Source: an uncultured Methanosarcinales archaeon
Lineage (GTDB): Archaea; Halobacteriota; Methanosarcinia; Methanotrichales; Methanotrichaceae
Length of the DNA stretch: 64,000 nucleotides
Assembly: GCA_903871465.1 (NCBI GenBank)
Contig: CAIQHB010000002.1
Location: forward strand, 780 to 64,779
Direction of reading: 5' to 3'
Shown one piece after another: positions 17,320-40,160 of this stretch (its first letter is position 1; every line of letters begins with the position of its first letter). Below the pieces are notes generated by a model. That model worked only from the letters and a program-made list of their open reading frames with translations. It was not told the DNA's origin and did not search any database. The position numbers and the translations under genes were made by a program.

Positions 17320-17483
17320 GCATTATTTCTGATTGGTTCTTCATTAAGTATCCGCTCCAAGCCCCAGGCAACAGATCCTTCTTGTACGGTATCCTTACGG
17401 AAACGCTCTACTCTATATATGTAGGTATCCTAAATATACGTTTAAATGATGAAAATTTGATCTGATATCCCAGGAATATAGAC

Positions 17484-18335
17484 ATGACAGAGCCATTTGT
17501 AGATACTGAAACGGATAGAACCAAGTCCAGGTGGTTGGCAAATGCATATCATGACTTTGTGGCGGAGATCGGCAGATCGAGGACCACGCTCAGAGGATTA
17601 TTCTACTATGCACTGCAGCGGAAAGTATCAGATTATCCCATCTGTGGATGGTTCGTCGGCGAGATCAGGATTACAAGGCCATATCACGAGAGCGACGGGG
17701 AGAAGCTGCCTAAATGGATGGGCAAAGCAAGGAAGCTGGGATTCGTTCCCGCGGATGCCATACTGGACGAGATTCCTGGAGAGCATGTCTTCTTGCCAGA
17801 GCTTTGTCAGAAGAGACCCTATTCCATCGAAGTTTGGCTGAATAAGTCCGCTCTCAATCCACTATTATTTCCTATTTGTGAGAAACACGGCGTGACTCTC
17901 GTTTCAGTCAATGGCAAGGCTTCGGTTGATGCCATCAAGGCTTTTTACCAGCGCTGCAATGGTCCGACCGTCATCCTCTGCCTCTCCGACTTAAGCTCTG
18001 ACAGCGCATTCTTTTGCCGGGATCTGGCGACCAGGATAGCAGAATCGAAGATATCAGGAAGCGATACGAAGATAAAATTGAAACACATTGGTCTCAAGCC
18101 TGATCAGGTACTGGAGCTGAAGATTCCCATGGTCCAGGGAAGAGCGGATTCCAAAGAGAACCTGGAAAAGTTCAAGATGTATCTCAAACCTCGCTCCCTT
18201 GATTACAGAAAGATGGCGGAACTTGATGCCATGGAGGTCTATTATCCAGGGGGCATAGCAGGTTTCCTGGATAAATCGCTTTCCCAATACGGTTGCGACT
18301 TTAATCTCGATGATGAATCCTGGTTATGTATTTGA
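17484..18335 (+). CDS. Top6A/Spo11-like (winged helix plus Toprim) protein with degenerate acidic motifs
   Basis: TLRGLFYY, KARKLGFVP...ILD, IEVWLNKSAL, ILCLSDLSSDS, HIGL..DQV..L.IP and ELDAM motifs. Confidence 0.6.
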   Translation: MTEPFVDTETDRTKSRWLANAYHDFVAEIGRSRTTLRGLFYYALQRKVSDYPICGWFVGEIRITRPYHESDGEKLPKWMGKARKLGFVPADAILDEIPGEHVFLPELCQKRPYSIEVWLNKSALNPLLFPICEKHGVTLVSVNGKASVDAIKAFYQRCNGPTVILCLSDLSSDSAFFCRDLATRIAESKISGSDTKIKLKHIGLKPDQVLELKIPMVQGRADSKENLEKFKMYLKPRSLDYRKMAELDAMEVYYPGGIAGFLDKSLSQYGCDFNLDDESWLCI

Positions 18336-18472
18336 TTATCTCTTAATATGAGTGGTGGATAGAGAGGAGAGGGATCCAGACAATTTCGGGGTTTTCTGAA
18401 ACCCAAAGCCCTCTCCCAGAGTTCCCTATCCGCCGATGATTACGGATCAAGCATCCGTACTTATGCTGCGGC

Positions 18473-18631
18473 CTATGCAGGCTTTTTGCTTCCCAAAGCA
18501 ACCATGGCTATACCAGCGCCAGCAACTAATATATCTCCCACAACCATATTCATTATAGCGCCGCCTGAAGAGAATATCGCAGCTATTCCTATAAGGAACA
18601 ATGCTCCACCAACCATTGCACTCGTTTGCAT
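18473..18631 (-). CDS. Unannotated 52-aa two-TM microprotein
   Basis: MQTSAMVGGALFLIGIAAIFSSGGAIMNMVVGDILVAGAGIAMVALGSKKPA; SD GGAGGTGA upstream. Confidence 0.65.
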   Translation of the reverse strand: MQTSAMVGGALFLIGIAAIFSSGGAIMNMVVGDILVAGAGIAMVALGSKKPA

Positions 18632-18754
18632 TTCTTTCCTCACCTCCTATTTTGCAAAATTGTAACCTTATGACATTGGATTTGGTTCACAATTGCATGC
18701 GGAGTATAAATGCTTTATCGTCGACTGCAACGTTTGTAGAGTCCTAAGAGCTTG

Positions 18755-18885
18755 GCATTTTATACTTCTAAGAGTACGTAAACTTGGCCTAACTTGAAAG
18801 TTTACGCGAGCGTTGTGGCGGGGTTCAGCCATCATCCGCCGTGCAATTGAGGGCCAGAAAGAGATCATCAATCTCTCGACCCTCA
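18755..18885 (+). ncRNA. Copy 1 of a repeated TATA + palindrome + hairpin element (candidate ncRNA or leader)
   Basis: TTTATA 18759-64; CGTAAACTT-N12-AAGTTTACG; 45 nt identical to copy 2; terminal stem TGAGGG/CCCTCA with inner AGAGAT/ATCTCT. Confidence 0.55.
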
Positions 18886-18906
18886 TATCGTCACTCTCAA
18901 GTTCTG

Positions 18907-20916
18907 TCAGATCTCATCGTACCTAAAGGTGTACTTTCCGTCTATTTTCAAGGGAGGCAAGCTTCTGGTCAGCGCCATGGCGATGATATTGGCAAAAGAC
19001 TCCAGAAGTCTGCGCTGTTCTGGGACAAGTAGGCGATCATGGCCTCCCTGCCTCACCCCTAGTACTCCGACAATATCATCCTTAGCTTTGAGTGGAAGAT
19101 AGAACAAGGTAGCAGAGGAAAGCGTTTCCGTTCCGCGTCCAGCGGGCTGCCCTCTTCGAAAAACCCAGCTAGCTACGCCCAGCTTGCGTTCATCCAGCTC
19201 CATATTCTCGCCCAAATGAGCCAGTACCTGCAGCCTTCCCATCTCATCCGGCAGCAAAATCATGACATCGCATAGAAAGGCCTCCGAAATTTCTTTAGTT
19301 GCATAGTTCAGCAACTCTTCTAGATTCTTAGCCGCCATAAGGTCGCGACTGAATGAGTATAGAGCGGAGACAAAACGCTCTCTCTGACGGATATTCTCCC
19401 TCTGCCATCTGATCTGGTCAGTGAGGATGCTGGTTAAATTTCCGACTATTATGAAGACCAAGAACAATGGCATGTAATGAAGGTCCGTAGGGGAGATAGA
19501 TAGCTGAGGGGGAACAAAGAAAAAGTCAAAAGCTAACACTGCCATAAGAGACGCCATCAAACCCGCACTTTTGCCCCAGGTCATCCCGCTGTAGACGACT
19601 GGCAATAGAAGCATTACTTCGGTGTTGACAAGCCCCAGCCATGCGTAGATTATCCAGCAAAAAAGTGTCATCACAGCCACGCTGGCAAAGCTGCCGTAGA
19701 ACTGCATCAAGTCTATAGGACTTGAGGATGCTGGCATCTCAGAAACCTTCTGTTCAGTCTCAACGCTACCTATGACCAGAACATGAATTGATCCGCTGTT
19801 ATTGACGATCTCATTGACAACTGAGCCCCTGAGCAATCTATTCCAGAGACTCCGACGCGGGAGACCTACAATTATTGCTGTTACGTTGTTCTGTCTGGCA
19901 AAGGAAAGGATGATCTCGGAGATCTTATATCCGTTGAGGAGTTGGATCCGTGCCCCCAGGTTTTCTGCCAGCATTATATTATGTTCCAGCTGGTCCTTTT
20001 CCGCCTCAGTGGGCGACCTTTCTTGAGGAGATTCCACATGGACGGCAAACCATTCGGCATCTTGATCGGCGGCCATGCGCTGACCTATGCGCACCAGCCG
20101 TTCCGAGAGCGGGCTGGTGCTAACGCAGACCAGCAGCCTTGAGCCGGCCTGCCACGGCCCCATGATGCCATGCTCCACCATGTAGGTGCGCATATCCTCG
20201 TCCACCTTTCGAGCAGCATACCTGAGCGCCAGCTCGCGGAGTCCAAGCAGGTTCCCTTTTCGAAAAAAGCGGCTCAGGGCCAGCTTTGCCTGGGGCGCTA
20301 CGTATACCTTGCCATCTTTGAACCGTTGCAGCAGCGCCTCAGGTGGAAGATCAACTACTTCGATATCATCTGCCAGCTCCATTATCTTGTCCGGAAGGGT
20401 TTCGGTGATTCGCACTCCCGTGATCTCATATACGATATCTTTGAGGCTTTCGATATGCTGAATATTCAGGGTGGTGTATACACTGATACCCGCATCCAGC
20501 AGCTCTTCTACGTCCTGATATCGTTTGGAATAGCGTGAATCCGAGGCATTATTGTGGGCCAGCTCGTCCACCAGGGCGACGGCTGGATGACGTGCCAGGA
20601 CGCCGTCCAGATCCATCTCTTCCAAGGTGACCCCCCCATGTACCAGATGGCGACGAGGAAGGACCTCCAGTCCATCCAGAAGAGCCTCGGTATCCTGCCG
20701 TCCATGTGTCTCTACCACAGCAATAACGACATTGACGCCATTATTTTTTAGGGCTCGAGCCTCTTCCAGCATTTGGTAGGTCTTGCCCACGCCTGCGGCA
20801 GCACCGAGAAAGATCTTAAGCCGTCCCCTGTTGCGAGCGGCATCCTCTGCCTCCTGCTCTTCATGCTGGAGACGCTGCAGAATTTCGTCCGGATCGGGAC
20901 AGTCCTCTCCGCTCAT
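18907..20916 (-). CDS. kdpD: KdpD sensor lacking the histidine-kinase domains
   Basis: GAAAGVGKT, ETHGR and ALVDELAH KdpD-N domain; Usp domain; 4 TM; GAF; ends before any H-box. Confidence 0.9.
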   Translation of the reverse strand: MSGEDCPDPDEILQRLQHEEQEAEDAARNRGRLKIFLGAAAGVGKTYQMLEEARALKNNGVNVVIAVVETHGRQDTEALLDGLEVLPRRHLVHGGVTLEEMDLDGVLARHPAVALVDELAHNNASDSRYSKRYQDVEELLDAGISVYTTLNIQHIESLKDIVYEITGVRITETLPDKIMELADDIEVVDLPPEALLQRFKDGKVYVAPQAKLALSRFFRKGNLLGLRELALRYAARKVDEDMRTYMVEHGIMGPWQAGSRLLVCVSTSPLSERLVRIGQRMAADQDAEWFAVHVESPQERSPTEAEKDQLEHNIMLAENLGARIQLLNGYKISEIILSFARQNNVTAIIVGLPRRSLWNRLLRGSVVNEIVNNSGSIHVLVIGSVETEQKVSEMPASSSPIDLMQFYGSFASVAVMTLFCWIIYAWLGLVNTEVMLLLPVVYSGMTWGKSAGLMASLMAVLAFDFFFVPPQLSISPTDLHYMPLFLVFIIVGNLTSILTDQIRWQRENIRQRERFVSALYSFSRDLMAAKNLEELLNYATKEISEAFLCDVMILLPDEMGRLQVLAHLGENMELDERKLGVASWVFRRGQPAGRGTETLSSATLFYLPLKAKDDIVGVLGVRQGGHDRLLVPEQRRLLESFANIIAMALTRSLPPLKIDGKYTFRYDEI

Positions 20917-21509
20917 CGCATGCGGCTCCCGGCCAGTTCATCCAGGGCAATGTTCAGCTTGAGAACGTTCACCCTCTCCTGTCCGAAGATGCCGAACTGG
21001 AGGGGCTCGATATGCCGATCAACCAGCACTCTGACATCAAACTCCGGTAGTCCCCTCGCTTTGGCCACTCGTGGAACCTGCAGGAAGGCACTTGCCGCGC
21101 TGATATGGGGATCAAGGCCGCTCCCCGAGGCCAGCACCAGATCCGCGGGCACCGTGGCATTGGCCGGCAGACCGTTCTCGCTTCTCACCTGCTTGACTCT
21201 CTCGCGCACTTGATCCATAAGTTTGGCGCTTGTCGGCCCCAGGTTGCTGCCCCCAGAGTTGCTGGCGTTATAGTCTACGGCAGACGGGCGACCATGGAAG
21301 TAGGCAGGGCTGGTGAATTTCTGTCCGATCAGCTCTGAGCCTACCAGAGTACCGTTCACGTATAGAAGGCTTCCATGGGCCTGATTGGGCATGGTCGTCT
21401 CGGCCACAAAGGTAACGAAGAACGGGTAAGCCAGACTGAGCAAACACACCAGCCCGAAGAGAAGGACGCAGGTCTTCGCCTCTCTGAGGATCTCATTCTT
21501 GTCCATCAA
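20913..21509 (-). CDS. kdpC: K+-transporting ATPase subunit C (copy 2)
   Basis: GSELIGQ.FT...YFHGRPSA, SGGSNLGP, SGSGLDPHIS and VNVLKLN motifs. Confidence 0.95.
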   Translation of the reverse strand: MMDKNEILREAKTCVLLFGLVCLLSLAYPFFVTFVAETTMPNQAHGSLLYVNGTLVGSELIGQKFTSPAYFHGRPSAVDYNASNSGGSNLGPTSAKLMDQVRERVKQVRSENGLPANATVPADLVLASGSGLDPHISAASAFLQVPRVAKARGLPEFDVRVLVDRHIEPLQFGIFGQERVNVLKLNIALDELAGSRMR

Positions 21510-21510
21510 C

Positions 21511-23547
21511 TCACTCCAAGTGCAAAAGCACTACTAATATGTCCACCAGCTTGATCCCGATGAATGGTATAATCAATCCGCCCAGGCCATAGACTACCAG
21601 GTTGTACCGAAGCAGCGATTCGGTTGTGGCCGCACGGTAGCTGACTCCTTTTATTGCTAGAGGTATCAGCGCTGGAATTATCAGTGCATTGAAGATGACT
21701 GCCGACAACACAGCACTGGCGGGTGTGGCCAGTCCCATTATGTTCAAAACCTCCAACTGCGGATAGGAGGTGGCAAATATGGCAGGCAGGATGGCGAAGT
21801 ACTTGGAAACGTCGTTGGCCACAGAAAAGGTGGTCAAGGCTCCTCTGGTCATCAGGAGCTGCTTTCCAATCTCGACTATGTCCAGCAGTTTTGCCGGATT
21901 GGAGTCAAGGTCAATCATGTTGGCCGCCTCCCTGGCGGCCTGAGTTCCGGCGTTCATGGCCACAGCCAGATCAGCCTGAGCCAGGGCCGGAGCATCGTTT
22001 GTTCCGTCTCCAATCATTGCCACCATGTGGCCATCCTTCTGGTATCTTCTGATGGCATCAAGCTTGAATGCCGGGCGTGCCTGGGCCATGAAGTCGTCAA
22101 TGCCCGCCTCTGCAGCAATGGCTGCGGCAGTTACCGGATTGTCTCCGGTTATCATGACGAACCTTATGCCTAACTTGCGCATGTTATTTAGCCTCTCTCT
22201 GATTCCCTCCTTTATAACATCCTTCAGCCTGATAGCTCCCAGAACTTTGATGCCTTCGACCACAACAAGAGGAGTCCCACCTTCTCTCGCGATCCTATCA
22301 ACGGCAGCATTTACCTCATCAGGGGTGGATAGGCCTACGCTTTTTATAAGATTGTCCATGGATTCCGCAGACCCTTTTCTGATCTGAACGCCATCAATGT
22401 TTATTCCGCTCATGCTGGATATCGGACTGAATGGCACGAAAGTCGAACCTTCTTTCGGTCTGATATCCCGTCCTCTGATTCCTAGGACCTGTTTGCACAG
22501 CTCCACAATGCTGCGGCCTTCGGGGGTATCGTCCGCCAGAGAGGAGAGCATTGCCGCCCTGGCGATCTCTTCGATGGACACTCCTGGCGCAGGGATGAAC
22601 TCGGTGGCCATTCTGTTGCCTAGAGTAATTGTGCCGGTCTTATCCATCAGCACCAGATCAACGTTTCCTGAGGCTTCCACGCCCCTGCCGGAGAGAGCTA
22701 TGACATTGTTCTGCAGCAATCGCTCCATGCCTGCTATGCCGATGGCTGGCAGGAGGCCGCCGATTGTTGTTGGTATTAGGCAGACTAGCAGCGACACCAG
22801 CACGACAAGACTTATGCTTACTCCCACATAGTTTGCAAACGGCACAAGGGTGACTACAACGATGATGAATATGGCAGTCATCCCTATGAGCAGAATCTCC
22901 AGAGCACGCTCATTAGGGGTCTTCTGACGCTTGGCGTTTTCGACCATTGAGATCATCTGGTCCAGGAAGGTCTCACCTGGATCCACTGTTACCTTGACGG
23001 TGATCTTTCCGGATATGACCTTTGTCCCGCCAGTAACGCCGCGAAGAGTGCTGCCTGGCTCACGGACGACTGGAGCCGACTCTCCCGTTACTGCTGATTC
23101 ATCCACGAGGGCAGTACCTTCTATTACCTCACCATCGCCTGGTATGATCTCGCCATTGTTCACCACATACAGATCGCCCTTGCGAAGATCCAATGCAGGG
23201 ATCTGCTCAATGCTTCCGTCATGCAGCTGTCTATTGGCCATAGCCTCGCTTCGGGCCAATCGCAAGCTCTCAGCCTGGGCCTTGCCCCTACCTTCTGCCA
23301 GAGCCTCGGAGAAGTTTGCGAATAGAACTGTGAACCAGAGCCAGATGCCGATCTGTATATCGAACTTGAAGTTTCCGCCAGTGAGTACGTCGCCCAAGGC
23401 ATTCAATGTAGTCAAGAACGCTCCGATCTCCACTACAAACATCACCAAATTGCGCCACTGGACGCGTGGATCGAGCTTGAGGAATGCATCCTTGACTGCC
23501 TGGCCAACTATATCAGATTCCAGGAGTTTTGTAGTCTTACCGCGCAT
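21511..23547 (-). CDS. kdpB: K+-transporting P-type ATPase subunit B (copy 2)
   Basis: [25 protein letters not shown] and ANDVSKYF motifs. Confidence 0.97.
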
Positions 23548-23560
23548 GCTATTGTCCCTC

Positions 23561-25261
23561 CTAGAAGGTCCTCCCCGACGTCATGAGCAGATGCTCCAGA
23601 ATCGGACCAATCGTCGCCACAGGGAAGAAACACAGGGCGCTAATTACGAAGACCACGAAGACCACCGCTATGATAAAGAGCGGGCTTGCAACAGGCAGAG
23701 TCGCAGCGCTTATGGGTATCTGTCCCTTCCTGGCCATAGAACCGGCAATGGCAATGCCCACCAGCAAGGTGGAGTACCTTCCCAGGATCATGCAGGGCGG
23801 GGTCATCAAATTGATGATATAGCTGTTCACGTTCAACCCACCCATAAATGAGCCGTTGTTGATGGACGCCGAAGTAAAGGCGAATAGCATTTCCGTCAAT
23901 CCATGAGGACCGGCATTGCCGAGTACCGCCATACCTGCCGCTGAAACGATGACAATAGCAGTCGTCATCAGCGATGAGAATGATGAGAACAGGAAGGAGG
24001 CCCCGGCAAGTATGATCTCACGGAGTTCAACCTTCTTGCCGATGAGCTCGGGTGTTCTGCCGGTCATGAGCCCAGCTATGAACATGGTCACTATGAAGTA
24101 GTGAATCAATGCCATAGGGCCCTCACCGATACACCCAAAGATGGGCGCTCCGATGACTACCATGAAGATGATCGTCAATATAGTGAGGGGCATCACGCTA
24201 TCGTGCTGAGATACGGTAGAGCCGTTCGCAGGAGCCATTCCGACTATTATGTACATGATATGTTCGAACATGGAAAACCGCATCTCTTTGCCCTCCATGT
24301 TCACGCCACCCTGGACGCCTAATTTTTCAAGCAGCGGATTTCCCTGATTCTCCGCGTAGAAGGGAAGGGGCATGACCAGTATGAACAGCACCAGCATGAC
24401 AGAGAACAGCGCTTTGGTCGTGTCACGGCTGATGGCCAGCTTTCCTATCATTACAACAATTGAGGCCGGAACGAACAGTATGTATGCCATTGTAAACCAA
24501 TTGGTAAACGGCGTCGGATTTTCGAAGGGATGAGCCATGCTGTTGGCAAAGTAGTTGGCTCCGTCCTCGCATATCAACTGGTATATTATGATTGTTGCCG
24601 CAGGGCCTCCCGGTATAAGCTGCACTCCACCTTCCAGTGTGTGAGCAACGGCATAAGGATCGAAGTTCTGCACCACGCCCTGAGAGATGAGAGGAAATAC
24701 CAGGATCAAGCCAAGGGGTATCCACACATAGAGTATGGCCCTTGTGAAATCGACCCAGAAGTTGCCTACCGTGGGACAATGCTTACGGCTGAAGGATCGC
24801 GCCAGAACAACTATGGCCACGAATCCGACTGAGGGGCTGATATAGTCCTCGACAAGAACCCCAAGCATCTGTGACATATAGCTTAGATCGCGCTCGCCAC
24901 TGTAAGCTATCCAATTGGTATTTGTTACCCAAGAGATGGCAGAGTTCACGGCCCAATCCCACCTGAAGGAGCTAACCCCATGAGGATTTAAGGGAAGCAC
25001 ACCCTGCAGCGACAGGATCATGAACGCAAATACAACCCCGAGGGTCTCGAAGCCCACAAGGGTTGCAACATATTTCTTCCAGGTCATCTCGCTGAACTCA
25101 TTGATGCCGCATACCCTGTAGATTCCTCGCTCTATTGGTCGTAATAGAGGAGTAAGCAGATTTGGCTCTCCTTTGAAGACCTTTGCGAGGTGCCACCCAT
25201 AGGGAAATGCCAGTATCAGAGTCACGACTATAACGGCAAAATATGCCAATTCCTGCAGCAT
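23561..25261 (-). CDS. kdpA: K+-transporting ATPase subunit A (copy 2), atypical filter
   Basis: TNTNW, HPFENP, EGKEMRF, GRTPE..GKKVE, HGLTE and NNGS motifs. Confidence 0.93.
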
Positions 25262-25386
25262 TTTATATCGTCCTCATAGATGATGAAAATTTCATTATCT
25301 CGTTCCGAATGAAATATAGGCGAAACATCTTTGTTCATTGATTTCCGAGCTGCAGCCGTTTAGGTCTGAATCCATTTTTTTTGGCT

Positions 25387-25551
25387 TCAAGATGCCCAGC
25401 CCCCGCCAAAGAAAAACATCACCACAATCCACCACAAAAGGATTAATGCTACAACTATCGCAATGCCTTTGATTATCTCCTTGCCTTCTCTTTCTGAGAT
25501 CTCTCTCAGATCGGCGATCATCTTGGCATCTTCACTGCTCGATGTTGACAT
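25387..25551 (-). CDS. Unannotated 54-aa single-TM microprotein upstream of kdpA copy 2
   Basis: MSTSSSEDAKMIADLREISEREGKEIIKGIAIVVALILLWWIVVMFFFGGGWAS; SD GGAGTGA upstream. Confidence 0.65.
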   Translation of the reverse strand: MSTSSSEDAKMIADLREISEREGKEIIKGIAIVVALILLWWIVVMFFFGGGWAS

Positions 25552-25860
25552 TTTAATCACTCCATTCAGCCGGACATATTCTCATTTATCGCCTAGGAAT
25601 TATATCTCATGAAATATTATTTTTATCCTAAAAATTTCTGAGATAATAGGATAATATCTCAAAATTGTGCTTCAGTAACCTTGATATATAAGCCGCAATG
25701 CGACGCAGTGTTTACTGCACGTCCTACTACTGTGGGATCTATGATATCATAGGACGATGTCATAGAGGCCTTTCATAAAAGTTCTTAATACTTAAGAATA
25801 CCCCTCGATAAGAACAGTGCGACGAAAAATGTGCGAGAGATTCGCTTTGCGATGATGAAG

Positions 25861-25947
25861 TACTGCGAGCAGCATCCTCAGCCTCCTGCTCTCCATGCTG
25901 GAGAAGCTGCCGAAATGTGTCAGGATCGAACTTTCCTTGCCATTCAT
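25861..25947 (-). pseudogene. kdpD: 5' remnant of kdpD after kdpC copy 1
   Basis: About 29 codons align with the start of the intact kdpD (…CTCCAGCATGGAGAGCAGGAGGCTGAGGATGCTGCTCGC), with a 1-nt deletion at codon 7 and the same ATGA overlap with kdpC. Confidence 0.85.
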
Positions 25948-26540
25948 CGCTTGCGGCTCATGGCCAATTCATCCAGGGCCATGTTCAGCTTGAGAACGTT
26001 TACCCTCTCCTGTCCGAAGATGCCGAACTGGAGGGGCTCGATATGCCGATCGACCAGCGCCCTTACATCGGTCTCAGGCAGTCCCCTCGCTTTGGCCACT
26101 CTTGGAACCTGCAGGAAGGCACTTGCCACGCTGATATGCGGGTCCAGGCCGCTTCCCGAGGCCAGCACCAGATCCGCGGGCACTGTGGCATTGGCCGGCA
26201 GACCGTTATCGATTCTCACCTTTTCGATCCTCTGGCGCACCTGCTCCATCAGCGCGGCACTTGTCGGCCCGTAATTGCTGCCGCCCGAGTTGTTGCCGGC
26301 ATAGTTCACGGCCGAGGGGCGGCCATGGAAATAGCCCTGGCTGGTGAAGTTCTGTCCTATGAGCTCAGAGCCCACGACTGTGCCATTCATGTACAGCAGG
26401 CTTCCATTGGCCTGGTAGGGCATAATAGTCTGGGTACTCCAGTTAATGAATAGAGTATAAACGATGCTGAGGACACAGACGACTATAAACAGCAACACGC
26501 ATGCCCTCAAATCTCTAGCCAACTCATTCTTGTCCATCAT
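25944..26540 (-). CDS. kdpC: K+-transporting ATPase subunit C (copy 1)
   Basis: Same KdpC motifs as copy 2. Confidence 0.95.
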   Translation of the reverse strand: MMDKNELARDLRACVLLFIVVCVLSIVYTLFINWSTQTIMPYQANGSLLYMNGTVVGSELIGQNFTSQGYFHGRPSAVNYAGNNSGGSNYGPTSAALMEQVRQRIEKVRIDNGLPANATVPADLVLASGSGLDPHISVASAFLQVPRVAKARGLPETDVRALVDRHIEPLQFGIFGQERVNVLKLNMALDELAMSRKR

Positions 26541-26541
26541 C

Positions 26542-28578
26542 TCACACCAGGTGCAACAACACTACGAGTATGTCCATCAGTTTGATGCCGACGAAGGGCA
26601 CAATCAGCCCCCCCACGCCATATATCAACATATTTCTTCGCAGCAGATCCTCTGCTGAGCTCGGTGTGTATCGAACGCCCCTCAATGCCAGAGGAATGAG
26701 CAGTGGTATGATAAGCGCATTGAATATCACCGTTGCCAGCACCGCGCTTGTAGGCGTGGAAAGCTGCATGACATTCAGCACATTCAGCATTGGATAGCTA
26801 TATGCAAACATAGCAGGCAGTATGGTAAAGTACTTGGAGACGTCATTGGCCACTGAGAAGGTGGTCAGAGCTCCGCGAGTGATCAGGATCTGCTTGCCTA
26901 TCTCCACGATATCCAGCAGCTTGGCTGGGTTGGAATCCAGATCGACCATGTTAGCGGCCTCCCTCGCTGCCTGCGTTCCTGCGTTCATGGCCACGGCCAC
27001 ATCCGCCTGGGCAAGAGCCGGTGCATCGTTTGTGCCATCTCCAATCATTGCCACCATGTGACCTTCATTTTGATACCTGCGAATGGCCTCCAACTTTGCC
27101 TCCGGGCGGGCCTGGCCGATGAAGTCATCAATGCCCGCTTCTGCAGCAATGGCTGCGGCAGTGGTGGAGTTATCTCCCGTGATCATGACCGAACGTATGC
27201 CAACCTTGCGCAAGTTTGATAGGCGCTCTTTTATGCCCTCTTTTAGCACATCCTTCAGGCGAATGGCTCCCAAAACCCTGGACCCTTCAGCAACGAGAAG
27301 AGGAGTGCCGCCTTCTCTGGCTATACCCTCCGCTGCGGCTCTGATATCTTCCGGGACATTGCAGGCATAGGATTTCATTAACTCCTCTATAGCATCGCTT
27401 GCTCCTTTTCGAATCTCTCGGCCCTCCAGGTTTATTCCGCTCATGCGAGTCTCGGCACTGAAGGGCAGGAAGGCAGAACCCTCCTCGGGCCGAATATCTC
27501 TTCCCCGAATGCCCAGGACAGACTTGGAGAGCTCCACTATGCTGCGACCTTCCGGGGTAGTATCTGCCAGGGAGGAGAGCATGGCTGCCTCTGCGAGATC
27601 ATCGATGCGGACTCCTTCGGCCGGGATGAACTCAGTCGCCATTCTATTCCCAAGAGTGATGGTGCCGGTCTTGTCCATCAGGACCACATCCACATTTCCA
27701 GCTGCTTCCACCGCCTTGCCGCTCAATGAGATCACATTGCTCCGCAGCAGCCTTTCCATGCCTGCAATTCCGATGGCAGGCAAGAGGCCCCCGATGGTGG
27801 TAGGCATGAGGCAGACCAGCAAGGCCATAAGAATAGGTATGGATAGCGACACGTTCATGTAGCCTGCAACAGGCACCAGCATGATCACTACTACTCCAAA
27901 CATCAGAGTCATGCCCACAAGCAGCATCTCCAAGGCTCGCTCATTGGGCGTCTTCTGTCGCTTGGCGCTCTCAACCATGGCAATCATCTGGTCCAGGAAG
28001 GTCTCACCCGGATTCGCGGTTATGCGGGCTTTGATCAGACCGGAGATCACCCTCGTTCCGCCGGTTACGCCGACCATGCTGCCCCCCGGCTCACGCACCA
28101 CGGGCGCCGACTCGCCGGTTATGGCAGATTCGTCCACCAAAGCCACACCATCCACGATCTCTCCGTCACTGGGTATGGTCTCGCCATCCCCTATCTGCAC
28201 GAGATCGCCCTTGCGCAGATCTAATGCATAGACTGGCTCCAAGCTGCCATCCCCCAGCAGCCTGTTGGCCATGGCCTCGCTTCGAGCCTGGCGCAGGCTC
28301 TCTGCCTGGGCACGGCCACGACCTTCGGCCAGAGCTTCGGAGAATGTTGAGAACAGCACCGTGAACCAGAGCCAGATGCTGATCTGAATATTGAGTCTAA
28401 AGTCTCCCCCCGTGAACAGATCGTAGACAGCTATCACGGTGCTAAAGGCTGAAACCATTTCTACTATAAGCATCACTGGGTTTCGCCAAAGGGCGCGAGG
28501 GTTCAGCTTCAGAATGGAGTCCTTTGCCGCAGCTCTTATCAGGTCCGATTGCCACAGATCGTATGTCTTAGTGTGCAT
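26542..28578 (-). CDS. kdpB: K+-transporting P-type ATPase subunit B (copy 1)
   Basis: TGES, PTTIGG, DKTGT, KGA, GDGTND and ANDVSKYF motifs. Confidence 0.97.
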   Translation of the reverse strand: MHTKTYDLWQSDLIRAAAKDSILKLNPRALWRNPVMLIVEMVSAFSTVIAVYDLFTGGDFRLNIQISIWLWFTVLFSTFSEALAEGRGRAQAESLRQARSEAMANRLLGDGSLEPVYALDLRKGDLVQIGDGETIPSDGEIVDGVALVDESAITGESAPVVREPGGSMVGVTGGTRVISGLIKARITANPGETFLDQMIAMVESAKRQKTPNERALEMLLVGMTLMFGVVVIMLVPVAGYMNVSLSIPILMALLVCLMPTTIGGLLPAIGIAGMERLLRSNVISLSGKAVEAAGNVDVVLMDKTGTITLGNRMATEFIPAEGVRIDDLAEAAMLSSLADTTPEGRSIVELSKSVLGIRGRDIRPEEGSAFLPFSAETRMSGINLEGREIRKGASDAIEELMKSYACNVPEDIRAAAEGIAREGGTPLLVAEGSRVLGAIRLKDVLKEGIKERLSNLRKVGIRSVMITGDNSTTAAAIAAEAGIDDFIGQARPEAKLEAIRRYQNEGHMVAMIGDGTNDAPALAQADVAVAMNAGTQAAREAANMVDLDSNPAKLLDIVEIGKQILITRGALTTFSVANDVSKYFTILPAMFAYSYPMLNVLNVMQLSTPTSAVLATVIFNALIIPLLIPLALRGVRYTPSSAEDLLRRNMLIYGVGGLIVPFVGIKLMDILVVLLHLV

Positions 28579-28587
28579 GCGGTCCTC

Positions 28588-30288
28588 CTAGAACGTTCTC
28601 CCCAATTGCATGAACAGATGCTCCAGAATCGGGCCGAGCATCATAATCGGGAAGAACTGCAGGGCGTTCACTATTATGACCGTGCCTACCACCAGGATGA
28701 TGAAGAAGGGGCTGGTCACGGGCAGGGTTGCTGCGGTCATTGGAATGATCTTCTTCTTGGCCAGCGACCCGGCAATGGCCAGAGCCGTGAACATAGTGGA
28801 GTACCTCCCGATAGCCATTCCCACCACGATGGTCAGATTGTAGAATGGCGTGTTAGTAGTCAGGCCCGCGGCAGGCGAGCCGTTGTTGACGCATATGGAT
28901 GCATAGTTGTAAAAGATCTCCATCAGCCCATGCGGTCCGTAATTATTCAGGCCCGCGAGGGCAAGGGGCAAAGATATGGCGATCCCTGTGAAGACCAGTG
29001 TGGGCAACGATGATGACAGGAGTGATACCGCTGCCAGGATGATCTCCCGGGGTTCGATCTTCTTGCCCGCCATCTCCGGTGAACGGCCGGTCATGAGCCC
29101 TCCCAGGAACATTGCCAGAATGAAGTAATAGAGCATGGTTATTATGCCCTCGCCCCAGCACCCGAATATTGGCGCTCCCACCACTATGTTCCAGAGTATT
29201 CCCATGAAGCTGAGAGGCAGCACGCTGTCATGCTGGACGAGGGTCGAGCCGTTGGCGGGACACATGGAGGTCAATGTCCAGATCATGTCCTCGAATAATG
29301 TGAAGCGCATCTCCTTGCCTTCCAGGTTCATGCCGCCTGCGACGCCCAGCTTTTCCAGTATCGGATTTCCCTGAAACTCCGGGTAGAGGTAGAAGGGCGA
29401 TGATAGCAGATAAAGCGCCAGCATGGCTCCGAAAAGCGCCCATCCAATCTTGCGGTTCCTGATCATCTCTCCGAAGGCAAAGCACATCGAGGCCGGGACG
29501 AGCAACATGATGCACATCTCAAATGCATAGGATAGGGGCGTGGGAGTTTCGAAGGGATGGACCGCATTCACGTTGAAGAAGCCGCCTCCGTCCTCGCACA
29601 CTATCTGCATAGCGATCAGGCCTGCCGCCGGCCCGCCTGGTATGAGCTGCTCTGCCCCCTCCAACGTCTTTGCTGTGACATAAGGGTTCATATTCTGTAT
29701 AACACCCTGAGAGGCGATGGCAAAGGCCAAGATTAAGGCCAAGGGCAAGATGATGTAGAATACAATCCGGGTCACATCGACCCAAAAGTTGCCAATGGTA
29801 TCGAAGTTCTTGCGGACAAAGCCCCGGATCAAGGCGACGCTGCAGGCCAATCCCACGGCCGGGCTGAGAAAGTCCTGAACAATGACTCCCAGAATCTGGG
29901 AGAGATAGCTCATGTCCCGCTCACCGGAGTAGACCTGCCATTCGGTATTGGTGACGAAAGAGAATGCCGTGTTCAGAGCAGTATCCCAGCGAAAAGAGCC
30001 GAGCCCCTGAGGATTGAGGGGAAGAACGCCCTGCAACATGAGGAGCATGAAGAAGAAAGCAATCCCCAGCACTTCGAAGCAAATAAGCATCAAAAGGTAG
30101 TTCTTCCAGGACATCTCTCTCTGCTCGTCAATTCCACACAGGCGGTAAATTATCTTCTCCACGGGCCGGATAATCGGCGTGAGCAGATTTGAATCTCCGT
30201 TGAAGACCCTCGCCATGTACCTGCCATAGAATACTGCCACTGCAAGACAGGCGGCTATAATGGCCACATGCGCCAATTCGACCAGCAT
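28588..30288 (-). CDS. kdpA: K+-transporting ATPase subunit A (copy 1), atypical filter
   Basis: TNTEWQ, GGGFFNVN, HPFETP, EGKEMRF and NNGS motifs. Confidence 0.93.
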   Translation of the reverse strand: MLVELAHVAIIAACLAVAVFYGRYMARVFNGDSNLLTPIIRPVEKIIYRLCGIDEQREMSWKNYLLMLICFEVLGIAFFFMLLMLQGVLPLNPQGLGSFRWDTALNTAFSFVTNTEWQVYSGERDMSYLSQILGVIVQDFLSPAVGLACSVALIRGFVRKNFDTIGNFWVDVTRIVFYIILPLALILAFAIASQGVIQNMNPYVTAKTLEGAEQLIPGGPAAGLIAMQIVCEDGGGFFNVNAVHPFETPTPLSYAFEMCIMLLVPASMCFAFGEMIRNRKIGWALFGAMLALYLLSSPFYLYPEFQGNPILEKLGVAGGMNLEGKEMRFTLFEDMIWTLTSMCPANGSTLVQHDSVLPLSFMGILWNIVVGAPIFGCWGEGIITMLYYFILAMFLGGLMTGRSPEMAGKKIEPREIILAAVSLLSSSLPTLVFTGIAISLPLALAGLNNYGPHGLMEIFYNYASICVNNGSPAAGLTTNTPFYNLTIVVGMAIGRYSTMFTALAIAGSLAKKKIIPMTAATLPVTSPFFIILVVGTVIIVNALQFFPIMMLGPILEHLFMQLGRTF

Positions 30289-31103
30289 TTAGTCCTCCGT
30301 GCATCAAATTTTAGTATGTAATAAATAGCAATTTGAGTTATAATTAATAAATTGATTGATATAAATAATTACGAAATTATCGGGTACGCTGGCCCGACAC
30401 AAAAGTGCTCGGGATAGGAAGAGTGTTGAAAACTTGTGCCAGGACATATGTTAAACTGAACACGACAATAGTTTTGGTTTTCATGGCAGGCATGATTAAG
30501 TTTGGAATCATATCGGAGTCACCTGTAATTCGGGCTTGGGTTTGCACTCGACCTCAGAACTTGCCTTCGTGTGCTAGGACTGATTCTCATAGTGCCATTC
30601 TCCATGGGAACTAGCATACGGTCAAATCTGATATATAAAAACTTTTGAGAATTTTTATGAGAAATTATGAGAAATTATGATCGCTCTTAAGATCATTACG
30701 TGAAGTAAATAATACATCCAGAGAGGACACCGATTGCTTCGCGTTTGTGGGTAGTGCATTTCCCATACAAATCAAAGTCCAAGATGTCAAGCATTTGATT
30801 TTTCATTTGCCACATGCTAGCCCGCTTCCCCAGGATCATAGGAGTTTCAACTATGATCTTACGAATTGGCACCTCCAATAGATCAAAGTTCAATATCTTT
30901 GCCAATTTGGACGTGCCTTGCTTCTCCCTGGGCCCTCGAACCATCCCGGAAGTAGAAGGCTCCACGACGCCAATACATAAATTTTTTATTGAATAAAAAG
31001 CAATGTGATTAAAATACTGACAATTATCTACCACATATTGAAAAGTTAGTCCGCCTCCCAAAGGCAATAAATCCAAAATACGATCTTTAAAACGCAGGAT
31101 AAA

Positions 31104-31228
31104 GCATTTATACTTCTAGGAGTACGTAAACTTGGCCCAACGCTAGAAGTTTACGCGAGCGTTGTGGCGGGGTTCAGCCATCATCCGCCGTACAATCGAG
31201 GCCAGCCTAGAGATTGCTGGTCCTCGAT
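31104..31228 (+). ncRNA. Copy 2 of the repeated TATA + palindrome + hairpin element
   Basis: TTTATA 31107-12; CGTAAACTT-N13-AAGTTTACG; CAACGCT/AGCGTTG; GGCGG/CCGCC; terminal stem ATCGAGG-CCAGC/GCTGG-T-CCTCGAT. Confidence 0.55.
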
Positions 31229-31273
31229 CCTCTCATCACCGCTAATCATCCAAAGCTTAATTCCAAGGCGAAT

Positions 31274-31864
31274 ATGAATAAGAGCATCCCGAAACCAAGT
31301 TTATATATAGTTACGCCGGCTGCGACCCAACATACTGACAGGACTATTCTTGATCTCGAAATCTATCTAACAAATAGCAACAATTTTAGATCCTGCATTT
31401 ATGATCATCGAGAGGTCAAGTCCATGGCAGAACGTTTTGGCTTATCCCCGGATCGAATTCGTTCTGAGCTAAGACGTCTCGGCTATCAATTGACTAATAA
31501 CGGTCATGGCCGGATGGTCTGGAAGAGTAAGGAAGGCGAACATATGAATTATGCCAAAAAGATCGCCTCCCTGGAAGAATATATTTCGAAATGCGAAGCC
31601 AGACAGCTGCAGTTCTACGATAGATCTGAAATTGGCAGGATCGCGAAGAAAAGCGGAGTAGACCGTGACTCCGTCAGAGCTGTACTGAGGCGCAGAGGCT
31701 ATAAATTGAGCCTGAATGCACACGATATAGCTGTTTGGGTTAAGAGACAGAGCACTGACACCGGATCGCTGGTTTCCGGCGCTTTCGCCGGTTCGGTTCT
31801 AGTTATGGGGACCGCGTATTGCAGCAGTCTTTATACTTGCCATCAATTTTTGTACCAGCTCTAG
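31274..31864 (+). CDS. Hypothetical protein with two tandem HTH/winged-helix-like domains
   Basis: IYDHREVKSMAERFGLSPDRIRSELRRLGYQL..W versus FYDRSEIGRIAKKSGVDRDSVRAVLRRRGYKL..W; ATG 31274 is the likely start. Confidence 0.6.
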   Translation: MNKSIPKPSLYIVTPAATQHTDRTILDLEIYLTNSNNFRSCIYDHREVKSMAERFGLSPDRIRSELRRLGYQLTNNGHGRMVWKSKEGEHMNYAKKIASLEEYISKCEARQLQFYDRSEIGRIAKKSGVDRDSVRAVLRRRGYKLSLNAHDIAVWVKRQSTDTGSLVSGAFAGSVLVMGTAYCSSLYTCHQFLYQL

Positions 31865-31918
31865 CTTTTCATCTATCCAAGACAAGAGGCAGCCCGGTAG
31901 AAATTTTCGTGTTTTATA

Positions 31919-33274
31919 TTATATTACGTTTTGGCATTCTTGCTCCGTATACAGTCTCTCCAACCAGCTTACCCCAAATAGAAATGCTGCAGAGACCGCT
32001 ATGCCAAGCAGAGGATACTTCTGGCCCAGGAAGATTGCTGTTAGTCCGCCTCCAACCAATGCTGCCAACGCGCCGGAAGGCGTAAGGCCCAGCCTATCTC
32101 TATAGAATCCGGCAATAACCGGCAAGAGCAGGCCACTGGTGAAGACGGTATAAGCAATAAGCAGGGTCTTAATGATGCCGGGCATTGAGACCGCCAATGC
32201 AAGGGCTGAAATCCCTATGCCTAACACGGAAAGCCTTGAGACTGCCATCAGTTTCCGTTCACTCGAATCCGGGCTTATTTTTCTGTAAATATCCAGAGTC
32301 AAAATGGATGTGGCGGTCATCAGGCTCGTGTCTGCTGATGACATGAACGCCGCCAGTAGGGCGGCTGCCACCAAGCCTTCTGTGCCGGAGGATAGCAGTC
32401 CTGTCAGGAGCAGCGGGATCGCCTGCTCAGGGGAAGCCGCAGGATAGAGCGACCGGGCGAAAATACCAAGCGAAGTAATCAGGAAGGCCGTCGGGATAAG
32501 GATGACAGCTGCGATCGCCGCCGATACCTTTGCTTCCCTGGGGCTATGGGCAGAGAACAGACGGGAATACATATCAGGACCGACCAGGTACGCCGAGCCG
32601 ACAACCAATAGCATGGTCAGTACATCGCTTGACCCCATCTCAGGAGATGCAGGAAAGCTTTGGCCCTGGAGCAAGCCGGGTCCGCCGGCCTCTAAGGCTT
32701 TGAAAAAAAGGACGGTCATTCCTGTTAATATTATGACTAACTGCACCAGGTCGGTCCTTATCACAGAGCTCTGACCTCCGTGAACTGTGTAGAGCACAAA
32801 GACTGCCGTGCAGGCAATCATGAATAGGGTCTCATTTCCCCCGAATACCGCTCCCAGCACCTTGCCTGAAGCCACGATCTGCACCGCAATGACTCCCACC
32901 CAGGAGATTACAATGAGGGTGGAAGCGACAAACCTTGCCCTTTCCCCATAGAAAGAGCCCACCAGTTCGGGCAGAGTGTAGCATCCTGTAGCCCTAACTT
33001 TCTCAGCAAAAAAGGTCGCCAGCACCAGCAGGCCCGCCGTGCCGGAGAGCATCCACCATGCACCTGGCAGGCCCTTGCTGAAGCCCAAACCTGCCATGCC
33101 CAGAGTTGCCGAAGCGCCGATGATGGTGGCACAGAATGTGCCTGTAAGAAGAACCAGCTTTATGCTCCGCCCCGCCAGGTGGAAATCCTCCAGTCCTTTC
33201 ATGCGAAGCCCCCAAGCGCCTATGGCAAGCATCGCCAACAAGTATACGACTATTACGACGGCAGCCAGGTCCAT
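31919..33274 (-). CDS. Sodium:solute symporter family protein
   Basis: DFHLAGRS, TLPELVG..YG, GGQSSVIRTDLVQ and AAFMSSADT motifs; about 13 TM. Confidence 0.9.
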   Translation of the reverse strand: MDLAAVVIVVYLLAMLAIGAWGLRMKGLEDFHLAGRSIKLVLLTGTFCATIIGASATLGMAGLGFSKGLPGAWWMLSGTAGLLVLATFFAEKVRATGCYTLPELVGSFYGERARFVASTLIVISWVGVIAVQIVASGKVLGAVFGGNETLFMIACTAVFVLYTVHGGQSSVIRTDLVQLVIILTGMTVLFFKALEAGGPGLLQGQSFPASPEMGSSDVLTMLLVVGSAYLVGPDMYSRLFSAHSPREAKVSAAIAAVILIPTAFLITSLGIFARSLYPAASPEQAIPLLLTGLLSSGTEGLVAAALLAAFMSSADTSLMTATSILTLDIYRKISPDSSERKLMAVSRLSVLGIGISALALAVSMPGIIKTLLIAYTVFTSGLLLPVIAGFYRDRLGLTPSGALAALVGGGLTAIFLGQKYPLLGIAVSAAFLFGVSWLERLYTEQECQNVI

Positions 33275-33558
33275 AGAACTATTCCTCTCGGTTTGTAAAC
33301 TCCTTCTTCGCGAGGAAGGTTGACAATACTATAAAGCCTTTGCTGTAACTGCAATGTTGGTTTAATGAGAAGATTGAGAGCCAATATTTTTTTACTGGCT
33401 CTCTATTGTCGGGCAAGATAGTGGATAAACCCCACGACAATTTTGCTGTAAACCCATGGCATTGGGCAAGGTTTACATGATCAGGAGGTATAAGTATTTT
33501 TGCATGGGCCTATCTTTCACGTCAAGACCCCAAGAATACATAGAATGACTCGAACCTC

Positions 33559-39258: not shown

Positions 39259-40160
39259 GCTGCAATGTCCCCCTTATAGCCTGGATACGGCCCGTACTTC
39301 TTCCTCGCGGAGATCTCCATATAGAGGTTATAAACGTTCATAAGAATGACAAATATGACTCCCATCGCGATTGCATACGGTGCCTGGGTAACGGGGTCGA
39401 ATACGGTTGTTCTCCAGTTATCGCAGAACACAGTCAGGCCGAAGCCAAGGCCAGTGCATGGACCGCCGAACTTGGCGCAGAACCAGGCATTATCAATAGA
39501 GTTTCTCAAGCCGGCTTCTGCTTTCCTGACAATCTGTCCGGAGAGCATGGTGTTGAGGCCCTGTCCGAAAAGCCTCCACTGGAACTCACGTTCACCACCG
39601 TAGTGAATATCACCCACAGACGACCCGATAGCTCCGATGGTTATGCCCCAAATGAGGCCAATGACGGGAATCGGGAAGGGATGATGAGGCGTAAGTACGT
39701 AAACCTGAATAACTGCGATCAGGGTTACACAGAACGATGTTATCCATACATGCGCCATAATAGACGGCGTAGTGTATCTTACGATATCCAGGTAGATCCA
39801 CTGATTGAACCTGGACTGGCTGGCGGACCTTCCGAAGTAGGCACTGGTTGCCATTACTCCGTCGAATAAAGCAGCTAATGAAGCACCAGCGACTGTTGCA
39901 AAGAGCAAAGGCATATGAAAGCCTTCGATAAGCACGTAAGCCATGATGCATGCGGTTGCGCACCACAAAGCGTTCGATGGCGGCTCGCCTGCAATGGCCT
40001 TATTATAAATCCGGTGGGGATTTCCTACCTGGGCAGCCAGTTGAACTTGCGAATTGGGGTTGCTTTGAGAACCAATATCCGAGTCGATATCCTCAGATGC
40101 ACCCGCAACTGTCGCAAGGGCACCCATAGCAGCTACGAGCCCCATGCCAAATGCGTCCAT
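39255..40160 (-). CDS. mtrE: Mtr subunit E
   Basis: SDIGSQSNPNSQVQLA, GEPP, GSSVGDIHYGGERE and KFGGP motifs. Confidence 0.97.
   Translation of the reverse strand: MDAFGMGLVAAMGALATVAGASEDIDSDIGSQSNPNSQVQLAAQVGNPHRIYNKAIAGEPPSNALWCATACIMAYVLIEGFHMPLLFATVAGASLAALFDGVMATSAYFGRSASQSRFNQWIYLDIVRYTTPSIMAHVWITSFCVTLIAVIQVYVLTPHHPFPIPVIGLIWGITIGAIGSSVGDIHYGGEREFQWRLFGQGLNTMLSGQIVRKAEAGLRNSIDNAWFCAKFGGPCTGLGFGLTVFCDNWRTTVFDPVTQAPYAIAMGVIFVILMNVYNLYMEISARKKYGPYPGYKGDIAA

Follow-up and report, generated by a model that had tools for sequence, protein, structure and literature searches.

A Methanothrix-specific promoter-operator-hairpin unit and its two copies flanking a strain-variable kdp island

Two closely similar stretches of DNA lie as direct repeats on either side of a set of potassium-transport (kdp) genes in the genome of an uncultured Methanosarcinales archaeon of the Methanotrichaceae, and the question that this locus raises is whether the repeated element is a regulatory RNA, a control element acting in DNA, or the end of something mobile. 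The window, that is the whole 64,000-nucleotide (nt) stretch of contig CAIQHB010000002.1 that was analysed, is archaeal in character, with an intron-bearing tRNA and promoters composed of a B recognition element (BRE) and a TATA box. A first-pass annotation, made from the sequence of this window, had read the two stretches (copies 1 and 2) as a ~95-nt small RNA (sRNA) or switch under an operator. Methanothrix species are among the Earth's main acetate-consuming methane producers and, to our knowledge, their gene regulation is almost unstudied. The reading that we favour, with a probability of roughly 0.65, is that the element belongs to a Methanothrix-specific family of units, each with a BRE/TATA element, a palindromic operator and a structured RNA of ~100 nt, and that copy 1 is an eroding duplicate at the border of a genomic island. 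The unit is unannotated and its architecture had been read correctly; the strongest evidence on it comes from other copies and other genomes.

Anatomy and distribution of the unit

Reading and alignment of the two stretches bore out every feature described for them. Copy 2 (31091-31273, plus strand) comprises a BRE/TATA element at 31099-31113 (TTTATAC at 31107), an operator at 31125-31155, a predicted transcription start at ~31138-31139, three hairpins, H1 (31138-31164), H2 (31161-31184) and H3 (31192-31228), and the remainder of a 5' untranslated region that reaches the ATG at 31274. Copy 1 (18743-18895, plus strand) has its TTTATAC at 18759 (TATA box 18759-18765), its operator at 18777-18806, H2 at ~18812-18835 and a variant H3 at 18848-18885. 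The inverted repeat of copy 1 is CGTAAACTT-N12-AAGTTTACG, the equivalent in copy 2 having a spacer of N13. A core of 45 nt is identical between the copies (18798-18842 and 31147-31191), with GGCGG/CCGCC and GTGGC/GCCAT pairings in both, and the alignment reaches ~91% identity over ~100 nt. The terminal hairpin is built from TGAGGG/CCCTCA and AGAGAT/ATCTCT in copy 1 and from ATCGAGG/CCTCGAT and CCAGC/GCTGG in copy 2. In a BLAST comparison covering the whole 3.13-Mb assembly the two copies matched each other with E = 4.6e-32, far beyond chance, with no other strong match; the similarity begins at 18743, ~16 nt further upstream than had been proposed, is interrupted by a patch of 12 unrelated nucleotides inside H3 and is weak again to ~18885. 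The contexts were also as described: copy 2 leads a gene for a tandem helix-turn-helix protein, here recognised as tandem winged-helix, with its TATA box 167 nt before ATG 31274, and copy 1, an orphan unit at the left border of the island, has no gene downstream and converges with kdpD, whose 3' end it meets on the opposite strand (stop codon 18907-18909).

A third full copy and two promoters that carry the operator only had been overlooked. Copy 3 (33338-33498, minus strand), the more diverged promoter P1 before a sodium:solute symporter gene (nhmmer E = 1.3e-17), has a TATA box at ~33493-33487, an operator at 33476-33448, H2 at ~33438-33417 and H3 at 33409-33373; the operator-only promoters lie at 18723-18662 and ~33336-33295, both on the minus strand. 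When a hidden Markov model (HMM) built from orthologous leaders was run against the genome, four sites were found, all in the window, namely copy 2, copy 1, copy 3 (33498-33338, minus) and an operator-only site at 18717-18662 (minus). A scan of the 3.13-Mb genome for the half-site pair behind a TATA-like box returned five sites, all in this one locus: three full units with leader hairpins H1, H2 and H3, and the two operator-only promoters.

Plain BLAST of the element in 60 relatives detected it in one close relative only, and the divergent copies were reached by gene-anchored search, pattern scan, HMM and covariance model (below, G000 is the source genome of the window, other G labels are genomes of relatives, and L labels are fetched loci, many of them metagenomic). 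Orthologs of the tandem winged-helix gene were identified in seven other genomes of the same genus, and in each the unit lies directly upstream, with a conserved AAAGCATTTATAC, the palindrome, three hairpins and then ~50 nt to the ATG. Metagenomes, scanned first with a pattern and then with the HMM, contributed another 13 loci or contigs, several holding two to four units; a loosened pattern applied to genome contigs gave 119 fetched loci, 118 of them chance and one real. The covariance model matched 18 of the 59 Methanothrix genomes, and among 77 genomes from other genera of the class there was one marginal match and nothing convincing outside Methanothrix. The family is confined to part of this genus and is positionally linked to K+ and solute transport genes.

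The units fall into classes according to position. Class H lies before the regulator gene (copy 2), class S before the symporter gene (copy 3), and class T is short and lies before an open reading frame (ORF) of 52 amino acids (aa); class X is an orphan 3' of the regulator gene, convergent with the 52-aa ORF and with T-runs after H3; and class O comprises copy 1 and its counterpart in L080. Class Y units are complete, have a T-run and lead no gene; the covariance model found them in G066, G074, G002, G021, G071 and G011 and, in degenerate form, in G016. With the exception of G066, they converge with a trkA-trkH operon whose stop codon is ~30 nt away, and on the contigs L206 (G074:C69) and L210 (G011:C25) a kdpD homolog ~5 kb upstream is followed by trkA, trkH and the convergent unit. 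T-runs follow H3 in classes X and Y and in most S units. The class X copy of G082 (L019:1909-2093) is reduced to its 3' half, with part of H2 and H3 and neither promoter nor operator, which suggests that orphan copies can decay. At L062:3664-4482 (Ga0007800_10001668) an IS110-family transposase ORF follows directly on an S-like unit, at the usual position of the symporter gene, and the locus therefore seems prone to insertions.

The earlier remark that the element resembles no recognisable riboswitch, tRNA, SRP or RNase P motif held up in an Rfam (release 15) scan, in which the window at gathering thresholds matched two tRNAs only and neither copy was assigned a family; permissive scans of copies 1 and 2 gave chance-level matches (sR20, 18.7 bits against a cut-off of 44; FourU, 15.3 against 60), and literature searches found no description of this element. 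An archaeal C/D box sRNA would show box C (RUGAUGA), box D (CUGA) and guide spacers of ~12 nt, conserved among copies. This identity was rejected: the sR20 match falls on the minus strand, within the junction that only copy 1 has (18860-18898), and an AUGAUGG-CUGA string antisense to copy 2 lacks a spacer, its CUGA not being conserved in the other classes. A leader peptide was likewise rejected, as indels shift the frame between orthologs. No reading frame escapes these shifts, and the orphan units beside trkA-trkH have only ~30 nt before the stop codon of the convergent trkH.

Conservation of hairpins and operator

The hairpins are conserved as pairing across the collected copies. H3 forms in every copy, around a loop of 6-13 nt that also varies in sequence. 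In an alignment of 30 sequences 80% of its cells are paired, compared with 31-51% in slid controls, double changes occur at 6 of its 13 pairs, and the covariation lies above that of shuffles (1 of 500 reaches it). The arms of H1 (CAAYGYNN/NNRCRTTG) close a loop that holds the right operator arm. The stem, of 6-9 bp, is found in all 14 class H copies and one class S copy, most X and S copies forming it only weakly; within class H 89% of cells are paired (21-51% when slid), 1 of 1000 shuffles reaches the covariation, and the arms change in a compensatory manner (CAAT/ATTG to CAAC/GTTG, plus others) while the loop stays fixed. For H2 and H3 together, in classes Y and S, 88.8% of cells are paired against 36-53% in slid controls, and the covariation is matched by 0 of 500 shuffles; the H2 of G071 carries two G-C to A-U double changes. 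H2 and H3 are connected by a joining region conserved in sequence. The check proposed with the original prediction, collecting copies and building a covariance model, thus yields pairing covariation in excess of shuffles for H1, for H2 and H3 combined and for H3. The classes are offset from one another by 1-3 nt, so that RNAalifold, given plain MAFFT alignments, detected no more than the palindrome and 4 bp of H3; the figures above come from hairpin-wise alignments and anchored counts.

Which strand is transcribed is best judged from H2, where 29 G.U pairs were counted against 4 A.C pairs and the sense strand was the more stable in 15 of 16 sequences. Since G.U pairs work on the sense strand only, this asymmetry points to a sense-strand RNA. 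Folding z-scores against shuffles are -4.2 to -6.3 in class Y and -4.0 in copy 3. After H3 there is a pyrimidine tail, AUCCUC, which resembles the anti-Shine-Dalgarno 3' end of 16S rRNA (GGAUCACCUCCU in this genome). At the level of the family, the proposal of an sRNA or switch of ~95 nt under an operator is therefore sustained, by 30 or more copies, compensatory hairpins, the G.U pairs of H2 and orphan units with T-runs. A stand-alone sRNA gene would have its own promoter, a discrete 3' end and no coding potential; six or seven other Methanothrix species hold a lone unit with a T-run, as such a gene would, and BRE/TATA and initiator are conserved. Copies 1 and 2 by themselves fold no better than shuffles to a significant degree (z = -1.3 and -1.65).

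Across 27-30 copies the half-sites of the palindrome, GTAAAC and GTTTAC, show little or no variation, whereas the spacer varies (N16-18), and in the genome the pair is found only behind TATA boxes of this locus. Its left arm lies between the TATA box and a conserved CCCAA, ~30 nt after the start of the TATA box, and its right arm just downstream. Such a spacing is the expected archaeal distance from TATA box to initiator; from BRE to the CCCAA initiator there are ~38 nt, and in the two tRNA genes of the window the BRE lies 36-40 nt before the mature 5' end. With the start placed at CCCAA the left arm should not be transcribed, and the palindrome is therefore best read as a protein operator. 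It has the sequence attributes of a transcription-factor operator, namely conserved inverted half-sites, a variable spacer and a fixed place. A further operator-like palindrome, GTAAAC-N18-GGTTAC at 39699-39728, has no TATA box upstream and is probably due to chance.

The gene led by copy 2 (31274-31864, plus strand) encodes a protein of 196 aa with a core of ~160 aa, made up of two winged-helix modules (AlphaFold pLDDT, the predicted local distance difference test, 80-89 in the domains), and a lineage-specific hydrophobic tail. No Pfam family scored above threshold, and Foldseek returned weak matches only, to proteins with tandem winged helices, among them ESCRT-II, a Pyrobaculum virus protein and the part of SelB that binds the selenocysteine insertion sequence (SECIS). 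The tail, a C-terminal extension of ~35 aa encoded at 31744-31864, is absent from the orthologs of 161-168 aa and is modelled with low confidence. As the neighbour of the unit this protein is a candidate operator binder, and possibly an RNA binder; the assignment is uncertain because class Y genomes keep the operator without an ortholog of the protein. An apparent association between the operator and the winged-helix gene (8 of 8 against 0 of 51) was withdrawn, since the search pattern had fixed one TATA variant and missed class Y.

For transcription, the identity of the binder and the function of the RNA we infer the following scheme. The full-length RNA would start at CCCAA and carry H1, the G.U-rich H2, the long H3 and the AUCCUC tail. 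The five promoters would serve the tandem winged-helix gene (copy 2), the symporter (copy 3 and P2, below), the 52-aa protein and, in the case of copy 1, nothing. A dimeric or tandem winged-helix repressor, here most likely the adjacent protein acting also on its own gene, would occupy the operator and block initiation, and the transcribed RNA would form a second regulatory layer linked to K+/osmolyte transport: where a gene follows, it would work in cis as a leader, and orphan units would make it as an sRNA in its own right.

The two operator-only promoters and the genes behind them complete the locus. The class T promoter (18662-18723, minus strand) is divergent from copy 1 and has its BRE/TATA, GATAAAGCATTTATAC, at 18723-18708 and its operator, GTGAAC-N17-GGTTAC, at 18690-18662, followed by a short leader with a GGAGG Shine-Dalgarno sequence. 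The ORF behind it (18482-18640, minus strand) encodes a 52-aa membrane protein with two helices, for which no family match was found and which is conserved in relatives, there directly after the symporter gene. P2 (33295-33336, minus strand) is a second promoter and operator directly before the symporter gene, with TTTATAG at ~33336-33329, GTCAAC-N18-GTTTAC at 33324-33295, and then a Shine-Dalgarno sequence and the ATG at 33274. The gene downstream of copy 3 and P2 (31919-33274, minus strand) encodes a sodium:solute symporter family protein of 451 aa.

The kdp island and the state of copy 1

Copies 1 and 2 enclose ~12.2 kb (18866-31090) in which the kdp genes lie on the minus strand: a kdpD without its kinase half (18907-20916), kdpC/B/A (20913-25261) and a second kdpC/B/A (25944-30288). 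The kdp block (18907-30288) is a tandem duplication with a period of 5031 nt and 72-89% identity, and a remnant of the 5' end of kdpD (25864-25928) follows the second kdpC. Elsewhere the source genome has a trkH-trkA pair (G000:C21:17269-18828) and a second kdpD-like gene (G000:C37:36198-36508), neither of them near a unit. Empty sites, with the flanks and without the kdp block, were found on the metagenome contigs L047 and L060 and in genome G030; the island or its borders are present in L080, L063 and L054. Positions 3691-5110 of L047 correspond to window positions 17446-18865 and its positions 4988-5929 to 31091-32032, so that the two matches overlap by ~123 nt, which are the unit itself, and the empty site holds a single copy; G030 is alike. 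Because the empty sites are single-copy, copies 1 and 2 are direct repeats that flank a strain-variable island.

The island was found to hold no integrase, transposase or other recombinase gene, its content being the kdp genes and two small ORFs without a family match. Upstream, copy 1 still has the resident neighbour, the T promoter; its 3' part (TTGAGGGCC) resembles the H leaders of another lineage. In the simplest model, the incoming DNA would have been circular, with a homologous unit behind its kdpD, and one crossover within the identical core would have joined this unit to the resident leader; such a donor arrangement would mirror that of trkH and class Y. An initial statement that the breakpoint lies exactly in the H3 loop was softened, as the BLAST match to the empty sites ends at 18865 and weak similarity resumes after the 12-nt patch.

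Comparison of the two island-bearing strains shows what has become of copy 1. The BRE has been destroyed in both strains, G000 and L080, though not in the same way, the 5' arm of H1 no longer pairs, and the L080 copy has substitutions at positions invariant in all other copies. Identity between G000 and L080 is 69% in the BRE region of copy 1, 90% from TATA box to operator and 91.5% in the leader, compared with 98.8% in the neighbouring T promoter, 95.7% at silent sites of kdpD and 92.6% at silent sites of the upstream 283-aa gene (17484-18335). Between these strains copy 1 is no better conserved than silent sites and is not under detectable constraint; it is probably a relic, an orphan duplicate in the course of erosion. 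Its variant H3 may be the own hairpin of the donor unit or the product of a templated fold-back mutation. The argument that a last hairpin which differs in sequence and yet stays paired reveals selection on structure is consequently unsound for this pair: the difference is a 12-nt patch in the H3 of copy 1, an island-border repeat that has lost BRE and H1 stem, and since copy 1 shows no detectable constraint and its H3 could have either origin, comparison of copies 1 and 2 alone does not show such selection.

Alternative explanations and related systems

Several results weigh against a family of operator-controlled RNA units with copy 1 as a relic. H3 is strand-symmetric (25 G.U against 24 A.C pairs), so that on its own it cannot be assigned to a sense RNA; copy 2 (-1.65), copy 1 (-1.27) and class X (-0.3) fold no better than shuffles; and the sequences behind the covariation are related to one another and record few independent events. 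A duplex search for mRNA base-pairing targets gave nothing convincing. Class Y genomes imply either that a paralog or another protein binds the operator there or that the adjacent protein is not the binder. The proposed donor arrangement was not found among 59 species genomes, whose kdpD homologs match within the coding region only.

The same observations can be put together differently. If the 100 nt behind the promoter had no function as RNA, they would be a DNA-level regulatory sequence (an extended operator or additional protein sites) or the passenger of a copied promoter cassette, and the hairpins would be palindromic protein sites or neutral; in keeping with this, the H3 arms show conservation of sequence and not of pairing only, with the strand symmetry already mentioned, class H leaders do not fold significantly, and all units lie in one small rearranging locus where copies may be young. 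We nevertheless consider this improbable, as a dimeric DNA binder would not tolerate a loop of 6-13 nt and variable sequence, the G.U pairs on which H2 depends are mismatches in DNA, the H1 arms change in compensation around the fixed operator arm, and T-run orphan units have been kept at a syntenic site in several species. An RNA function might instead be that of a riboswitch, a leader sensing K+, cyclic di-AMP (c-di-AMP), Na+ or an osmolyte. A riboswitch would combine a conserved ligand-binding core and covarying helices with a place in the 5' untranslated region of the gene that it regulates; the helices of the unit do covary. The association with trk, kdp and sodium:solute symporter genes would fit, as would the conserved H2-H3 joining region, T-runs after H3 suited to attenuation, and a possible alternative pairing of the UUG in the H1 3' arm with a conserved ACAAU before H3 (RUUGU/ACAAU, which would compete with H1). 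This is highly improbable for an element that matches no Rfam riboswitch, the c-di-AMP class included, is equipped with a protein operator, in many copies precedes no gene and occurs in a fraction of one genus.

Copy 1 could itself be at work. It would then yield, where kdpD ends, an operator-controlled sRNA or antisense RNA, and would be to kdp what the orphan convergent with trkA-trkH is to trk in other Methanothrix species; its variant H3 would be the functional hairpin of the donor, and the structural conservation noted at the outset would be genuine. Orphans convergent with K+ uptake operons do recur (in at least five species a class Y unit comes after trkA-trkH, with a kdpD homolog ~5 kb off), the 3' part of copy 1 (TTGAGGGCC...AAGAGA) is nearer to the H leaders of another lineage than to resident copy 2, as if borne by the island, and the 12-nt novel patch is identical in G000 and L080 and contains the AGAGAT/ATCTCT stem, which is unlikely by chance (our own estimate is ~0.002). 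The destroyed BRE, the broken H1 arm, the substitutions in L080 and a strain identity at or below the silent-site level all speak against a working copy, as do its folding z-score and the absence, in the 50 nt after H3, of any T-run of at least four; the inner stem could moreover have arisen without selection, by templated fold-back mutation. A working copy 1 thus seems unlikely to us. That the repeats are ends of a mobile element, or attL and attR of an integrase-driven island, is largely refuted. Direct repeats of ~125-150 nt do flank a strain-variable island, and the locus attracts insertions (the IS110 transposase in L062). However, a miniature inverted-repeat transposable element (MITE) or insertion sequence (IS) would have many dispersed copies, terminal inverted repeats and short target-site duplications, and here the copies are confined to one locus and the repeat is far longer than such a duplication. 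An att-bounded island would hold a site-specific recombinase gene and usually have its att core in a tRNA gene, whereas this island lacks a recombinase and the repeat is a promoter and leader, conserved before orthologous genes in island-free genomes.

A family of operator-controlled units with copy 1 as a relic thus remains our preferred reading, and it could be extended, though this is less likely than not, to an undescribed class of archaeal regulatory RNA, both sRNA and 5' leader, that together with the winged-helix protein would relay K+ or osmotic status to Trk, Kdp and the symporter. The RNA may sense an ion or nucleotide signal or, by analogy with SelB, which binds the SECIS element, the tandem winged-helix protein may bind the hairpins. 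The unit offers a concrete and testable entry into the regulation of ion and osmolyte homeostasis in Methanothrix and adds to a small set of candidate cis- and trans-acting regulatory RNAs in archaea, while the locus shows with unusual clarity how a transporter island of 12 kb can come to lie between two copies of a regulatory element, sister strains having kept the empty site.

Archaeal repressor operators that overlap the region from TATA box to start site are known from NrpR (nif and glnA of methanogens) and from autoregulated promoters of the TrmB and Lrs14 types. The Methanothrix unit is like these in the palindrome around the TATA box and start site, in the several operators of a small regulon and in a regulator gene under its own operator; it differs in its candidate binder, a tandem winged-helix protein that reaches the threshold of no Pfam family and whose binding is predicted, and in its GTAAAC/GTTTAC half-sites (22-24 bp from start to start), which are not known to match any operator. 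SreA and SreB of Listeria are small RNAs derived from leaders or riboswitches that act both as cis leader and as trans RNA, and the Methanothrix element similarly occurs as a 5' leader and as a lone unit with a terminator-like T-run, although it is archaeal and is combined with a protein operator. Methanosarcina mazei sRNA41 and sRNA162 are regulatory sRNAs that mask ribosome-binding sites; our candidate is likewise a methanogen RNA of ~100 nt with stable hairpins, and its AUCCUC is akin to an anti-Shine-Dalgarno sequence, but it has no sequence relation to them, the target search was empty and it is restricted to Methanothrix. With the bacterial c-di-AMP (ydaO/kimA) riboswitch, RF00379, which lies upstream of K+ transporters, the unit shares the character of a structured RNA tied genomically to K+ uptake and osmolyte transport genes, whereas it has no Rfam match, possesses three simple hairpins rather than a pseudo-symmetric fold and is often convergent with transporters and not upstream of them. 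The island, finally, resembles those of the Campbell-type single crossover in having a direct repeat at each border and one copy in the empty site. It differs from them in that a site-specific recombinase is absent and the repeat is a predicted promoter and leader, and homologous recombination between paralogous units therefore appears the likelier route by which the kdp genes entered this locus.

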